Below, piece after piece: positions 32,263-37,496 of a stretch of DNA of 64,000 nucleotides. A program made the translations under genes and the position numbers. Within the stretch, counting starts at the first letter, position 1, and the number at the start of each line of letters is the position of its first letter. Below the pieces are notes generated by a model. It was not told where the DNA came from, made no database searches, and was given only the letters and a program-made list of their open reading frames with translations. Source of the stretch: an uncultured Clostridiaceae bacterium (lineage in GTDB: Bacteria; Bacillota; Clostridia; Lachnospirales; Lachnospiraceae); the NCBI GenBank assembly GCA_937890595.1, contig CALADM010000014.1:15082-79081 (forward strand), read 5' to 3'.

Positions 32263-32433
32263 TTATTCCTGCTCAATAGAACCTGTTGGGCAAGTAGCTG
32301 CACAAGAACCGCACTCGATGCAAGTATCAGCGTCGATCACATATTTGCCGTCTCCCTCAGAGATAGCGCCAACTGGACATCCATCAGCACAAGCGCCGCA
32401 GGATACACATCCATCATTAATTACGTATGCCAT
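32263..32433 (-). CDS. 2x[4Fe-4S] clostridial-type ferredoxin (56 aa; not in the supplied ORF track)
   Basis: My translation: MAYVINDGCVSCGACADGCPVGAISEGDGKYVIDADTCIECGSCAATCPTGSIEQE. It has two CxxCxxCxxxCP motifs and an SD AAGGAGG upstream. Confidence 0.88.
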   Translation of the reverse strand: MAYVINDGCVSCGACADGCPVGAISEGDGKYVIDADTCIECGSCAATCPTGSIEQE

Positions 32434-32520: not shown

Positions 32521-33285
32521 CTAAATTGGTTTCTTTTCGGTACAAGTATGCTCATCACGAATCCCAGAAAGAATGATCTTTTTTGCAGCAAGGGCATCCT
32601 CACGGGAAAGAGGTTTGAGCGATTCAAGCGGGTACGGGATACCAAGCTCATGGTATTTGGTCTTGCCCATATCATGGTAAGGAAGGACATCCAAGGCTTT
32701 CACATTGGAGAGTGTTCCGATAAAATGCCCAAGCTGGTAGAGCCAGTTTGGATCATCTGTGATCCCAGGGACTACAACATGTCTGATCCAGACAGGAATC
32801 TGTTTTTCGGACAGATAGCGGGCAAACGCAAGAATATTCTGGTTTGGCTGTGCTGTCAGTTTTTGATGCTCTGTTGGATCGATGTGTTTGATATCAAGCA
32901 TGACCAGATCGGTAACTGCGAGAAGGGCATCTACCTGCTCAATATTGGAAGGGCTGTCAGGATGAAACATGATACCAGATGTATCCAGACAGGTATGGAT
33001 ACCTTGTGCGTGGGCTTTTTCGAAAAGCTCTGTGACAAATGCCATCTGTACCATTGGCTCTCCGCCGGTGACAGTAAGACCACCGCTGCGGTAGAATGTC
33101 TTATTTCTTGCATATTGTTCCAGAATTTCATCCGTGGTCATCTCAGTTCCCCCATCAAACTGCCATGTATCAGGATTATGGCAGTACTGGCAGCGCATAG
33201 GACAGCCTTTGGTAAAGACAACCATACGGACTCCCGGTCCGTCAACGGTTCCGAAACTCTCGATAGAATGGATTTGACCCGTCAT
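32521..33285 (-). CDS. pflA: Pyruvate formate-lyase activating enzyme (radical SAM)
   Basis: N-terminal IHSIESFGTVDGPGVR and cluster motif CPMRCQYCHNPDTW. Confidence 0.92.
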   Translation of the reverse strand: MTGQIHSIESFGTVDGPGVRMVVFTKGCPMRCQYCHNPDTWQFDGGTEMTTDEILEQYARNKTFYRSGGLTVTGGEPMVQMAFVTELFEKAHAQGIHTCLDTSGIMFHPDSPSNIEQVDALLAVTDLVMLDIKHIDPTEHQKLTAQPNQNILAFARYLSEKQIPVWIRHVVVPGITDDPNWLYQLGHFIGTLSNVKALDVLPYHDMGKTKYHELGIPYPLESLKPLSREDALAAKKIILSGIRDEHTCTEKKPI

Positions 33286-33493: not shown

Positions 33494-33736
33494 TTACAGA
33501 TTGTTGTGGAAAGTTCTGGAGATAACTTCATCCTGCTGCTCTTTTGTCAGTTTGATGAAGTTTACAGCGTAACCAGAAACACGAACGGTCAGCTGAGGAT
33601 ATTTCTCAGGATGTGCCTGTGCATCCAGAAGAGTTTCCTTTGTAAATACATTGACATTTAAGTGATGTCCGCCTTTTTCTGCATATCCGTCTAACAAGGA
33701 TACCAGGTTATCAATTTGATTTTCGCTAATAGACAT
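33494..33736 (-). CDS. Stand-alone glycyl-radical domain protein (GrcA/YfiD-like), corresponding to the missing C-terminus of the upstream pflB
   Basis: [17 protein letters not shown]...[35 protein letters not shown] carries the RVSGYAV glycyl-radical fingerprint. Own ATG with SD AAAGGAGG. Confidence 0.88.
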
Positions 33737-33754: not shown

Positions 33755-34021
33755 TTAATCTTCGTGATGGTTATAATTGTAATCATCGTGCTGTTCTTCT
33801 GTATCTTCTGAAAGATCCATACCCTCAAAGAGAGTAGGAACTTTACATGCCATATCTCCGGCAGCACATTCCAGAGAATTGGTTGTCTGTACAGTCTTTT
33901 CGGCAGTAACTGTGCCGGAAGCATCGACTTGTATATTCATATGTCCGCCGTTGTTTGACATAAACTGATCAATCATGGCGACAATGTCATCAATTTTTTC
34001 TTCTTTGTTTTTATCTCCCAT
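33755..34021 (-). CDS. 88-aa hypothetical protein; the N-terminus is a paralog of the first part of the glycyl-radical module and the C-terminus is unrelated, Cys-containing and acidic
   Basis: The ATG at 34021 lies 8 nt after AAAGGAG. KIDDIVAMIDQFMSNNGGHMNIQV resembles [24 protein letters not shown], and shared DNA strings include AAATTGAT-AC and GGCGGACAT. There is no RVSGY motif. Confidence 0.6.
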   Translation of the reverse strand: MGDKNKEEKIDDIVAMIDQFMSNNGGHMNIQVDASGTVTAEKTVQTTNSLECAAGDMACKVPTLFEGMDLSEDTEEQHDDYNYNHHED

Positions 34022-34095
34022 ACGGCAGACTCCTTTCAGCGTCATTGACAAAGATACAAGGGGATCATTTAGATCCTGTTTTGTTTATATAGTTA

Positions 34096-36156
34096 TTATT
34101 TGTCGTTGTTGCTAAGATCCAGATCTAAGTCTACATCAAGATCTCCTGCAAATACTACATCATCTTTTCCAAGTGCGTTCGGGATGATGGAGAAAGTATT
34201 GGAGATACCATCCTGTGCGTCACGGAATGGCAGCTTGGAAACAGAAGATAAGGATGCAACTGCACCATGGCTGTCACGTCTGTGCATTGGGTTTGCACCT
34301 GGAGCGAATGGCTCGCCTGCTTTTCTTCCGTCTGGTGTAGAACCTGTATTCTTACCATATACAACGTTGGATGTGATGGTAAGGATAGAAGTAGTAGGTC
34401 TGCCGCCACGGTATGTGTGGTTTCCTCTTACATAGTTCATGAATGTGTGAACCAGCTCAGAAGCGATCTGATCTACACGGTCATCATCGTTTCCGTATTT
34501 CGGGAAATCACCTTCTACTTCGTAGTCTACAACGATACCGTTTTCATCACGGACTGTCTTAACCTTTGCGTATTTGATAGCAGACAGGGAGTCAGCTACT
34601 ACGGAAAGACCTGCAATACCGGTTGCGAACCAACGTGTGATCTCTTTGTCATGAAGAGCCATCTGGATTCTCTCATAGCAGTATTTGTCATGCATATAGT
34701 GGATGATGTTCAATGTGTTTACATAAACACGAGCCAGCCACTGCATCATATCTTTGTACTTATCCATTACTTCATCATAATCAAGATACTCAGAAGTGAT
34801 CGGACGGTACTTAGGACCAACCTGTTTCTTTGTGATCTCATCTACACCACCATTGATTGCGTAAAGGAGACATTTTGCAAGGTTTGCACGAGCGCCGAAG
34901 AACTGCATTTCTTTACCAAGTCTCATGGAAGATACACAGCATGCGATCGCATAGTCATCGCCATGTGTTACACGCATTAAGTCATCATTCTCGTACTGAA
35001 CGGAAGAGGACTCGATGGAAGTCTTAGCACAGAAACGTTTGAAGTTTTCCGGAAGTCTTGTGGACCAAAGAACAGTCAGGTTTGGCTCTGGAGCAGTTCC
35101 AAGGTTGGACAGTGTGTGCAGGTAACGGAAGGACATCTTTGTTACCATGTGACGACCGTCAATGCCGACACCACCGATAGACTCTGTAACCCAAGTTGGG
35201 TCTCCGGAGAACAGTGCATTGTATTCTGGAGTACGAGCAAATTTTACAAGTCTCAGCTTCATGATGAAGTGGTCTACGAACTCCTGGATCTGCTCCTCTG
35301 TAAATGTTCCGTTCTTTAAGTCACGCTCAGCATAGATGTCGATAAATGTGGAAGTACGTCCAAGGGACATTGCAGCACCATTCTGCTCTTTTACAGCTGC
35401 AAGGTATCCAAAATATGTCCACTGGATTGCTTCTTTTACGTTCTCAGCAGGTCTTCCGATATCATAACCGTAGATCTCACCCAGTTTCTTCAGTTCCTGA
35501 AGTGCGCGGATCTGCTCAGATAACTCTTCACGGTTTCTGATAACATCAGAATACATGATTGTACGAGTTGTATTCTTCTGCTCTGTCTTATCTTCGATCA
35601 GACGGTCAACACCGTACAGTGCGACACGACGGTAGTCGCCGATGATACGTCCACGACCATATGCATCCGGAAGTCCAGTGATGATGTGGCTGGAACGGCA
35701 AGCACGCATTTCTGGAGTATATGCATCAAATACACCAGCGTTGTGTGTCTTTCTATGAGTAGTGAAAAATTCAACGATCTCTGGGTCTACTTCATATCCG
35801 TTATCCTGACAAGCTTTTACTGCCATACGGATACCGCCATAAGGCTGCAGGGAACGCTTGAATGGTTTATCAGTCTGGAAACCAACGATGGTCTCTTTGT
35901 CTTTGTTTAAATAACCCGGTCCATGGGAAGTGATCGTGGAGATCACCTTGGTATCCATATCAAGGACGCCGCCTTTTTCACGCTCCTGTTTGGATAACTC
36001 CAGTACCTGGTTCCATAAATCTGTTGTATTCTGTGTGGGACCGACAAGGAAAGTGTCATCTCCGTCATATGGGGTATAGTTCTTCTGAATGAAGTCACGA
36101 ACATTGATTTCGCGCTCCCATACGCCGCCTTTAAAATTTGTCCATTCTGGTCTCAT
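34096..36156 (-). CDS. pflB: Formate C-acetyltransferase (pyruvate formate-lyase) core lacking the glycyl-radical domain
   Basis: The ATG at 36156 follows AGGAGGAGG. It is PFL-like throughout, including the catalytic CC ([10 protein letters not shown]). Homology ends at [14 protein letters not shown], then comes an unrelated tail [20 protein letters not shown] and TAATAA. Confidence 0.9.
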
Positions 36157-36220
36157 GGGGTAAATCCTCCTCCTATTGTTCTCTATTTTGTAGTATGGTT
36201 TAAGAGTTAAATACAGAGTT

Positions 36221-36249: not shown

Positions 36250-36471
36250 GAAGGTCTGACGAAAATTTTTTCTTGACTGATTATCTGTATTATAATAGAA
36301 TATTTCCATCAAGTCTGTTAGATATACAACAAAAAAGAAGAAAAATTGTTTTTTTTAATATACAAAAAGGAACAATATAGAGAATAGTACAGATTTTTTG
36401 CTTTCTGATTGGACTTTTTGTGTTATAAGTTTCGGTTGGAAGGCTCTTTAAGGAAGAGGGAAAGAGAAAAA

Positions 36472-37140
36472 ATGAGAGATTATTTACTTCAGTTGAGAAA
36501 TTCACCTATTTTTACAGGAATGCAGGAAGAGGAGATATTACATACATTAGAATGTCAAAGACCTCAGATATTAAAATATGAGAAGGGGGACTACATTTTC
36601 AGGGAGGGTGAGAAATTACAAAAGTTTGGTCTGATCCTTTTGGGAAGTGTATATATTGTAAAGGAAGATATCTGGGGAAACCGTACCATTTTGGCAAAGA
36701 TGGAGGAGGGACAGCCTTTTGGTGAAAGTTTTGCTTTTATGAATAAAGAGACATTATCTTTTGGAGTGATCGCTTCTGAGAAAACGGTTGTCGCATTTTT
36801 GAATGTAAAGAATATTTTGGGGGTTTGTTCCAAGGCATGTTTCAGCCATACACAGTTGATCCACAATCTGCTCCAAGTGATGGCAGAGGCAAATCAGGTA
36901 TTGATGAAGAAGATTGAACATACCTCCCAAAAGACAACAAGGAATAAATTGCTTTCGTATCTGTCTGATGAGTCAAAACGGCAGAAGAGCCTCAAGTTTG
37001 AGATCCCATTTAACAGACAGCAGCTTGCAGAATATCTGAATGTGGACAGGAGTGCAATGTCAGTGGAACTGAGTAAATTGCGTGATGAGGGAATTCTGAA
37101 ATTTGAGCGTAATTCTTTTACTATTTTGGATACCTTATAG
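36472..37140 (+). CDS. Crp/Fnr family transcriptional regulator
   Basis: cNMP-binding-like beta-roll N-domain and a C-terminal HTH (RQQLAEYLNVDRSAMSVELSKLRDEGIL). It lies divergent from pflB. Confidence 0.85.
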   Translation: MRDYLLQLRNSPIFTGMQEEEILHTLECQRPQILKYEKGDYIFREGEKLQKFGLILLGSVYIVKEDIWGNRTILAKMEEGQPFGESFAFMNKETLSFGVIASEKTVVAFLNVKNILGVCSKACFSHTQLIHNLLQVMAEANQVLMKKIEHTSQKTTRNKLLSYLSDESKRQKSLKFEIPFNRQQLAEYLNVDRSAMSVELSKLRDEGILKFERNSFTILDTL

Positions 37141-37295: not shown

Positions 37296-37496
37296 ATGCA
37301 GATTAATAAAGATATGCTGATCGGTGATCTGGTTCGTTTGGATGAGGGAATTGCACCTATTCTGATGAGAGTGGGAATGCATTGTTTAGGATGCCCATCC
37401 GCACAGATGGAGTCTCTGGAAGAGGCTTGCATGGTACACGGACTGGATGTGAATACAGTAGTAGATTCTGTGAATGAGTATCTTGCAAATAAGTAA
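37296..37496 (+). CDS. DUF1858 (hybrid-cluster-protein-associated redox disulfide) small protein
   Basis: The GMHCLGCPSAQMESLEEAC..HG pattern is typical of this family. Confidence 0.7.
   Translation: MQINKDMLIGDLVRLDEGIAPILMRVGMHCLGCPSAQMESLEEACMVHGLDVNTVVDSVNEYLANK

Follow-up and report, generated by a model that had tools for sequence, protein, structure and literature searches.

What is a small open reading frame (ORF) of 88 amino acids doing between the two pieces of a split enzyme? The question is raised by a stretch of 64,000 nucleotides from an uncultured Clostridiaceae bacterium (contig CALADM010000014.1 of assembly GCA_937890595.1, positions 15,082 to 79,081), hereafter the window, which carries a four-gene pyruvate formate-lyase (PFL) operon on its minus strand. 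The genes run in the order PFL core, ORF88, GrcA3-type glycyl-radical module and PFL-activating enzyme (PFL-AE), and ORF88 itself lies at 33755-34021 (minus strand, stop codon included). An earlier interpretation of the same letters, made without database searches (the sequence-only reading), had described ORF88 as a partial duplicate of the radical module that lacks the radical glycine, wedged between core and module. Its placement and translation of the ORF are confirmed here. Homology searches indicate, in addition, that the protein is a conserved chimera, with an N-terminal half resembling the radical module and a C-terminal half resembling a cysteine-containing tail that other split PFL cores carry themselves.

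The two halves of ORF88

When searched alone, ORF88 matches GrcA3 over positions 2-31 with an E-value of 0.0024, and it scores 17.9 bits against NF038360 (cut-off 158) and 14.5 bits against PF01228 (cut-off 22.2). When family profiles are compared with hhalign (33 ORF88 family members versus 16 GrcA3 sequences), the relationship is recovered with a probability of 96.7% and an E-value of 4.3e-10, and the alignment is limited to columns 2-38 of ORF88 and 3-39 of GrcA3. The ORF88 profile also cross-matches the adjacent GrcA3 ORFs in dozens of genomes (E 1e-4 to 1e-8), as well as the equivalent place in full-length PFLs of 740-780 amino acids.

The aligned segment (residues 2-38; 33908-34018, minus strand) consists of an amphipathic helix, IDDIVAMIDQFM in ORF88, followed by a GGxHxNVxV strand that reads GGHMNIQV in the window. 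AlphaFold2, applied to a construct in which ORF88 reads through into GrcA3, places the helix at residues 4-22 and the strand at residues 27-32. H27 and N29 are the counterparts of His and Asn in the GrcA3 strand GGHHLNVNV, and both are invariant in the ORF88 family. In Escherichia coli, the equivalent strand is beta-10 of the barrel, which is proposed to come from YfiD in truncated PFL (PMC8683613). The profile alignments show the first ~37 residues of ORF88 to be, by homology, a paralogue of the helix and beta-10 strand of GrcA3.

The parallel between the N-terminus of ORF88 and the start of the module had been seen in the sequence-only reading, and so had the absence of RVSGY; both observations hold, the motif being absent and the module alignment stopping at residue ~38. 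The description as a partial duplicate without the glycine is likewise upheld, with helix and beta-10 retained, including the invariant His and Asn. At the DNA level, the words AAATTGATGAC/AAATTGATAAC and GGCGGACAT quoted as evidence of duplication are present; the overall DNA identity of the two 5' ends is only moderate, which points to an old duplication. A whole-length homology to the module, with KVPTL aligned to RVSGY and the radical glycine replaced by threonine, was considered and rejected because hhalign covers only residues 2-38. The distance from the end of the strand to the invariant cysteine is mostly 24-31 residues in the ORF88 family, and the distance to the radical glycine is 25 residues in GrcA3.

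The C-terminal half contains a motif of the form C-x6-C-x-V-P-T-L-F-E-G-x-D (residues 49-69, SLECAAGDMACKVPTLFEGMD; 33815-33877, minus strand). It is followed by an acidic tail (residues 70-88; 33758-33814, minus strand) that varies in length and sequence and is unalignable across homologues. The family-wide element can be written [D/E]-C-x5-7-C-x-[V/I]-P-[T/N]-[L/F]-x-[E]-G-x-D, in which C52, C59, P62 and T63 are invariant and L64, G67 and D69 are at least 90% conserved (alignment A3); G67, in the FEG segment, is the sole conserved glycine of this half. At least two cysteines are found in 144 of the 145 family members, with C-x6-C spacing in 114, and some members have three or four. The linker between the docking part and the motif is free in length, from ~10 to 60 residues. 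In one member of 122 amino acids (P0073), the linker is enlarged by a repeated unit of ~13 residues (...AEATELAGTTGAEKATEPAGMSGAEKVTEPAGTTEAEK...), which shows that the spacing between docking part and motif has no upper limit.

The same peptide is found elsewhere as part of the enzyme itself. In split-PFL genomes that lack ORF88, the core is ~20-30 residues longer and continues after GD[LI][DE][VI]DL into this cysteine peptide, mostly as C-x4-C-x-x-P-T/N-L. Examples of such fused tails include ...GDLEVDLDCSNGACSSPTLFEGLD, ...DDCTNMACSVPTLHEGIDEE, ...GDIEIDLDCSNGACSSPTLFEGLDTNLD, ...DCVGNACEIPTLTDIEPEEL and ...ECANMACSIPNIEESIDRE. Positions 50-71 of the ORF88 profile match inside core ORFs of 711-729 amino acids (E 2e-6 to 9e-4), and an alternation between PT and PN is common to ORF88 variants and fused tails. 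Across both forms the cysteines are arranged as CC, C-x4-C, C-x5-C or C-x6-C, with spacings up to C-x9-C. The hosts of the fused form include Tissierellia (Helcococcus, Peptoniphilaceae), Erysipelotrichaceae, Culicoidibacter, Oscillospiraceae and Lachnospiraceae. A minimal fused tail, ...NGCCEDVVE, preserves only the cysteines ('GCCE') and has no ORF88 beside it.

These profile matches show the C-terminal motif of ORF88 to be homologous with, and in that sense the same peptide as, the fused cysteine tail of split cores, and the fused variants show that the cysteine peptide is, beside the docking segment, a conserved functional element. Because the N-terminus is homologous to GrcA3 and the C-terminal motif to the fused core tail, ORF88 is a chimera of a GrcA3 N-terminus and the cysteine tail of the core. 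The statement in the sequence-only reading that everything past the first ~34 residues is unrelated is thus accurate with respect to the radical module, but does not extend to the fused core tails, to which this part is homologous.

Conservation, distribution and origin

ORF88 is a genuine and conserved small protein that has as yet no name. In a word-indexed search, 70 homologues came up at 49-99% identity, every one of them annotated as 'hypothetical' or left unnamed, and a profile search run exhaustively over 1.84 billion representatives yielded 185 clusters at 50% identity, of which almost all are standalone proteins of 55-90 amino acids. In a collection with one genome per species, relatives are encoded by 213 stretches. 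Among the hosts are Lacrimispora, Hungatella hathewayi, [Clostridium] fimetarium, [C.] aerotolerans and Lachnospira. Neither Pfam nor NCBIfam contains a model for the family, and full-text literature searches turned up no paper about GrcA3, about clostridial split PFL or about a small PFL-associated cysteine protein.

The order core-ORF88-GrcA3, usually with the activating enzyme, is kept in unrelated flanking contexts, and this synteny is fixed across Lachnospiraceae and Ruminococcus. A simple motif test recovered the order of core, small ORF and GrcA3 in 72 of 80 genome loci; the exceptions that were re-read (L032, L052, L060, L085, L099, L102-L104 and L106) proved to be missed motif variants or fragments at contig ends. 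The Ruminococcus-type split PFL is accompanied by a more diverged member of the family (...GGQGHLTIDI...TSDCGGDGKTACCQPTEED). A Shine-Dalgarno-like site precedes the ATG in 71 of 73 ORF88 loci, and the good site claimed for the window is present as AAAGGAG at 34030-34036 (minus strand), 8 nucleotides 5' of the start codon.

The median pairwise ratio of nonsynonymous to synonymous substitution rates (dN/dS) is 0.25 for ORF88, compared with 0.09 for GrcA3 and 0.08 for the core, and indicates purifying selection. Divided by part, the ratio is 0.19 in the docking segment, 0.26 in the cysteine motif and 0.58 in the linker; in the acidic tail it is ~1.4, from few pairs only. The constraint is on the docking part and the motif, and the linker and acidic tail drift freely. 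The acidic, His/Tyr-rich tail described in the sequence-only reading is present, and free drift in the C-terminal half is confined to this diverged part and does not include the cysteine motif. Of the checks that this reading proposed, those on homologues, synteny and dN/dS all speak for a retained gene: ORF88 has relatives, keeps its place in the operon and is maintained by purifying selection, and so it is no relic in decay.

Two genomes depart from the usual arrangement. In one Lachnospiraceae genome (G004), the ORF88 homologue is unlinked from pfl and lies upstream of a MoxR-type AAA ATPase (L018, contig 16); at the pfl locus of the same genome (L021, contig 3), GrcA3 comes straight after a core that ends in GDIDLK, and this GrcA3 reads GGYH in place of GGHH. 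In another genome (G016; L023, 4150-4310, minus strand), the homologue is stopped by a TAA after ...GCTDCAK, so that the docking module and a C-x2-C pair are kept and the AC-x-VPTL motif is lost. This shortened copy may be a pseudogene or, alternatively, a minimal variant.

An even sample of 300 Clostridia genomes contained 16 split loci, of which four have ORF88, nine a fused C-x4-C tail, one a CC tail and two no tail, and a cysteine pair is accordingly found in 14 of the 16. The split loci were detected via cross-matches of the ORF88 profile, and the census may therefore be incomplete. The tail-less cores end in ...SLGKDD or ...SLGKS (L107/L131 in G193 and L114/L132 in G313); each is followed directly by a GrcA-like ORF with its own start, and neither locus has a GDLDxDL tail or a cysteine arm.

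A maximum-likelihood tree of the last 260 core residues groups these two tail-less cores with a full-length PFL of the family of one of them (support 100/98). Because of this grouping they represent independent, recent splits at the same position, so that splitting at the start of the radical domain is a recurrent event. The remaining split cores fall into a single clade (99/95), in which every basal branch has the fused tail; cores of the ORF88 type sit within a subclade of 51 rows (99/89), mixed with fused forms. Given the basal position of the fused type and the nesting of the ORF88 type, the fused tail is ancestral and ORF88 derived, with later interconversions. The simplest origin that can be inferred is a tandem duplication spanning the cysteine tail, the stop codon, the Shine-Dalgarno site and the helix and strand of GrcA3, which would yield in one step an ORF with a GrcA3-like start and a cysteine-tail end; the core's own copy of the tail would have been lost afterwards. 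The sequence-only reading had proposed a local duplication of the 3' region of pflB followed by divergence. The N-terminal paralogy with the module is upheld, but ORF88 as a whole is a chimera that includes the core's cysteine tail and not a diverged copy of that 3' region.

The split enzyme and the possible role of ORF88

The PFL core of the window (34096-36159, minus strand) is a protein of 687 amino acids from an ATG at 36159, and it is assigned by TIGR01255 (1105 bits) and PF02901. It aligns only to positions 2-665 of the 744 in TIGR01255, an equivalog model; the active-site ACCVS is found, and beta-10 and the glycyl-radical loop are missing. The GrcA3-type module (33494-33736, minus strand) is an autonomous protein of 80 amino acids that contains RVSGY and scores 170 bits against NF038360, above the cut-off of 158. 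The PFL-AE (32521-33285, minus strand) is a radical SAM protein with CX3CX2C that scores 297 bits against TIGR02493 (cut-off 232) and also matches PF13353 (Fer4_12) and PF04055 (Radical_SAM). The PFL of the window is naturally split exactly at the start of its C-terminal glycyl-radical domain, and ORF88 lies in the gap.

A strong promoter-like site is predicted ahead of the operon at 36249-36221. The 74-nucleotide spacer between core and ORF88 contains a short GC hairpin with a weak T tract (34062-34076, minus strand), terminator-like as a consensus match only, which could serve attenuation or transcript stabilisation and so set the ratio of core to small subunits. Read-through of the stop codon between ORF88 and GrcA3 was rejected: the two are in frame in the window, but so only in 8 of 13 loci, and several spacers contain extra stops.

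Several neighbouring genes may be relevant to the operon in general. A ferredoxin of 55 amino acids with two [4Fe-4S] clusters (NF058577, FdxA family; 32263-32433, minus strand) lies directly 3' of PFL-AE, in a layout that is repeated in [Clostridium] fimetarium (L001, L002), and may be the electron donor of the activase. A Crp/Fnr-family regulator (36409-37140, plus strand) is divergent from the pfl promoter and is likely the anaerobic regulator of the operon; at one other locus (L123) a cNMP-binding/HTH_Crp_2 gene lies 3' of PFL-AE. A 66-residue DUF1858/TIGR03980 'hybrid cluster protein-associated redox disulfide' protein (GMHCLGCP) is encoded at 37296-37496 (plus strand), and homologues lie no more than ~3 kb from the pfl operon at 55 of 80 ORF88 loci (loci considered: L001, L019, L024, L028-L106 and L124). 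In related genomes, the linkage to pfl is seen in 10 of 15 with split PFL and in two of four with full-length PFL. Because it is also found beside full-length PFLs, this protein is linked to pfl in general and was rejected as a partner specific to ORF88.

With regard to function, the interpretation tentatively favoured here, to which somewhat less than an even chance is given, is that ORF88 is a functional third component of the naturally split PFL, in which a docking module brings in a dithiol arm. Since ORF88 keeps the helix and strand residues that are conserved in GrcA3 for contact with the PFL barrel, it would bind the same beta-10 slot, on a protomer without a radical module. The 80-residue module has no hydrophobic core of its own. 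With one beta-10 slot per protomer, ORF88 and GrcA3 would have to alternate on any given protomer. Candidate targets are a newly made core, or one from which an oxygen-damaged module has been ejected. ORF88 would complete the barrel and place its flexible dithiol arm inside or on top of the open active site, which holds a Cys-Cys pair; the arm might then shield, quench or re-reduce the exposed cysteines of the module-free or damaged core, a step that is speculative, until activated GrcA3 displaces ORF88. The suggestion of the sequence-only reading that ORF88 could be a placeholder, chaperone or competitive regulator of module loading is plausible, and the present proposal shares the placeholder; the fused variants add to it the cysteines as the constant element.

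A broader version of the proposal draws on analogy with the C-terminal tail of ribonucleotide reductase (RNR). It would regard the split PFLs of gut and rumen Clostridia as three-part 'serviceable' radical enzymes, composed of a core, a replaceable GrcA3 cartridge and a dithiol arm, fused or supplied as ORF88, that reaches into the opened barrel and there quenches or mends the cysteines of the active site, much as the RNR tail does in its homologous barrel. If this holds, ORF88 would be the first non-radical 'service module' on the spare-part docking interface of a glycyl radical enzyme (GRE). This generalisation is rather doubtful.

A number of observations weigh against these proposals. The fused variants have no second beta-10, and in them the arm and GrcA3 share a protomer; because the fused arm coexists with GrcA3, strict mutual exclusion with the radical module is not the whole story. 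PFL turnover is redox-neutral and, unlike that of RNR, needs no external reductant, and the RNR analogy rests on a very short motif. One family member (P0195) has a single cysteine. A split-specific Cys or His partner in the core was looked for, and none of the seven split-specific positions is either residue. The two independently split PFLs carry no cysteine arm, and presumably they work. Finally, both AlphaFold runs leave the cysteine motif disordered and give no confident arrangement of ORF88 with GrcA3 or of the tail with the holoenzyme. In the ORF88-GrcA3 read-through construct (TAA replaced by glycine), GrcA3 folds, the helix and strand of ORF88 have a pLDDT of ~50, the rest is disordered and residues 40-102 fall below 50; in an in-frame read-through of core, fused tail and GrcA3 from a Tissierellia genome, the C-terminal 200 residues are poorly assembled and the tail is disordered.

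The strongest of the other explanations, although itself unlikely, is that ORF88 or the fused tail acts as a clasp or assembly subunit, which would bind at the same time as GrcA3 and keep the non-covalently attached radical module in place on the core. Such a clasp would take over from the covalent tether that the full-length enzyme has, with PTLFEG packed on the GrcA3 helix or on the core tail GDLDVDLDL. The geometry of the fused form is compatible with this, as the tail begins only ~12-25 residues after ALGKDD, next to where the helix of the module must sit, and is permanently alongside GrcA3. The amphipathic acidic core tail GD[LI]D[VI]DL is kept by all members of the main split clade, and residues 696-733 of cleaved E. 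coli PFL promote YfiD binding (PMC8683613). However, a clasp leaves the beta-10 His/Asn signature of ORF88 unexplained, given that the barrel has a single slot, and it does not account for the two cysteines, which are the most constant feature even in GCCE tails without PTLFEG. AlphaFold2 showed no ordered tail in the re-fused protein.

An improbable alternative starts from the premise that a PFL dimer holds about one radical, and makes ORF88 a cheap structural stand-in for GrcA3 that permanently fills the second, inactive protomer. The docking module common to the two proteins, the fixed position of ORF88 between core and GrcA3 and the predicted co-transcription would all be consistent with such a dummy, and half-site reactivity of PflB is discussed in the literature (PMC12338860). 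Nevertheless, in the fused variants there is an arm on every protomer and no dummy beta-10, and the conserved cysteines are given no reason.

Less probable again is a metal-binding or Fe-S accessory subunit comparable to the small subunits of HPAD, BSS or MASS. ORF88 is a small cysteine-containing protein encoded beside a glycyl-radical enzyme, some members have three or four cysteines, and [4Fe-4S] or Fe sites occur in the small subunits of other GREs (PMC13450708). Only two cysteines are conserved, however, with a spacing that ranges over CC, C-x4-C, C-x5-C and C-x6-C; the motif region is predicted to be disordered and no HiPIP-like or rubredoxin-like fold is apparent, a PDB profile search with ORF88 found no relative, and the fused tails have no equivalent of His27. 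Because the cysteines persist with variable spacing, even without PTLFEG, a redox-active dithiol on a flexible acidic tail fits better than a metal site.

It is very improbable that ORF88 is a non-functional remnant of the splitting or duplication, the alternative raised in the sequence-only reading, or a ribosomal peptide precursor unrelated to PFL: the free drift of tail and linker and the shortened G016 copy would suit a remnant, but both conserved parts are under purifying selection in ~185 diverged clusters with fixed synteny and a kept Shine-Dalgarno site, and the radical SAM protein encoded nearby is a true PFL-AE (TIGR02493 above cut-off). A secreted peptide is excluded because many lineages carry the motif as a covalent part of their PFL core. 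Classification as a precursor of a ribosomally synthesised and post-translationally modified peptide was rejected on the same ground and because the radical SAM enzyme beside ORF88 is the PFL-AE and not a dedicated maturase (for example of the SPASM type).

PFL is the main route from pyruvate to formate and acetyl-CoA in abundant gut anaerobes such as Lachnospiraceae, Hungatella, Lacrimispora and Ruminococcus. These organisms have the enzyme in an obligatorily split form, and the main split clade has a conserved two-cysteine peptide, fused or as ORF88. ORF88 provides a natural system for the study of radical-module loading, module exchange and oxygen protection, questions that are open for PFL and YfiD of E. 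coli. By analogy, it suggests a possible link in mechanism from glycyl radical enzymes to the cysteine tails of RNRs. It is also a clean case of gene birth in which two adjacent coding regions contributed to a chimera. For annotation, such 'hypothetical proteins' and the ~700-residue 'formate C-acetyltransferases' beside them should be treated as parts of one multi-subunit enzyme.

Comparison with known systems

The closest known relatives are the GrcA/YfiD-type cofactors (GrcA3, NF038360; PF01228), which are likewise small proteins beside PFL and PFL-AE and which share with ORF88 the N-terminal helix and GGxHxNVxV strand over ~37 homologous residues. ORF88 differs in that it falls far below the family cut-offs, takes its C-terminal half from another source, the cysteine tail of the core, and has no RVSGY loop, radical glycine or C-terminal helix; without the loop and the glycine, it cannot carry a radical, and neither its activation by PFL-AE nor a restoration of PFL activity is to be expected.

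A second likeness is to residues 696-733 of E. coli PFL, the 'recognition element'. Retention of these residues improves the binding of YfiD to oxygen-cleaved PFL (Andorfer et al. 2021, PMC8683613), and truncated PFL with YfiD is fully active after activation, the modules being exchangeable (PMC8683613). In both systems a second, glycine-less copy of beta-10 lies beside a spare radical module. However, the E. coli element is a covalent leftover of damage, whereas ORF88 is separately encoded, conserved and equipped with a cysteine motif. The disordered N-terminus of E. coli YfiD, which is thought to read the 696-733 element, is absent from GrcA3.

The C-terminal tail of class I RNR serves to re-reduce the cysteines in the active site of a barrel that shares its ancestry with the PFL barrel. 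The E. coli R1 tail, ...DDGCESGACKI, was confirmed at R1 residues 737-761 and in the glutaredoxin complex 1QFN (PDB). Like the tails of class I and II RNRs (C754 and C759 in E. coli R1), the cysteine peptide is an acidic, flexible C-terminal element with two cysteines, and the fused PFL tails read D-C-x-x-G/N-A-C, as in ...D-C-S-N-G-A-C... and ...DD-C-T-N-M-A-C.... Both stand at the end of a homologous ten-stranded barrel with redox-sensitive active-site cysteines, with ORF88 supplying the peptide in trans. On the other hand, the resemblance extends over a few residues, from which homology is not claimable; the RNR tail is needed at each turnover, while the chemistry of PFL is redox-neutral; and the spacing in ORF88 is mostly C-x6-C, followed by PTLFEG.

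According to a 2026 review, small subunits of GREs have so far been seen only in HPAD, BSS and MASS, where they are Fe-S or rubredoxin-like proteins, and spare-part proteins are listed for formate lyases only (PMC13450708). HPAD gamma, BSS beta/gamma and MASS beta/gamma/delta resemble ORF88 in being small, in containing cysteines and in being encoded together with the catalytic subunit of a GRE, and they have been proposed to modulate its radical state. They have Fe-S or rubredoxin-like folds with four cysteines or with three cysteines and one histidine, whereas ORF88 has two cysteines in a peptide predicted to be disordered, joined to a docking segment derived from a glycyl-radical module. 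Taken against these systems, ORF88 is a relative of the GRE accessory and spare-part proteins, with a new composition and probably a new role.

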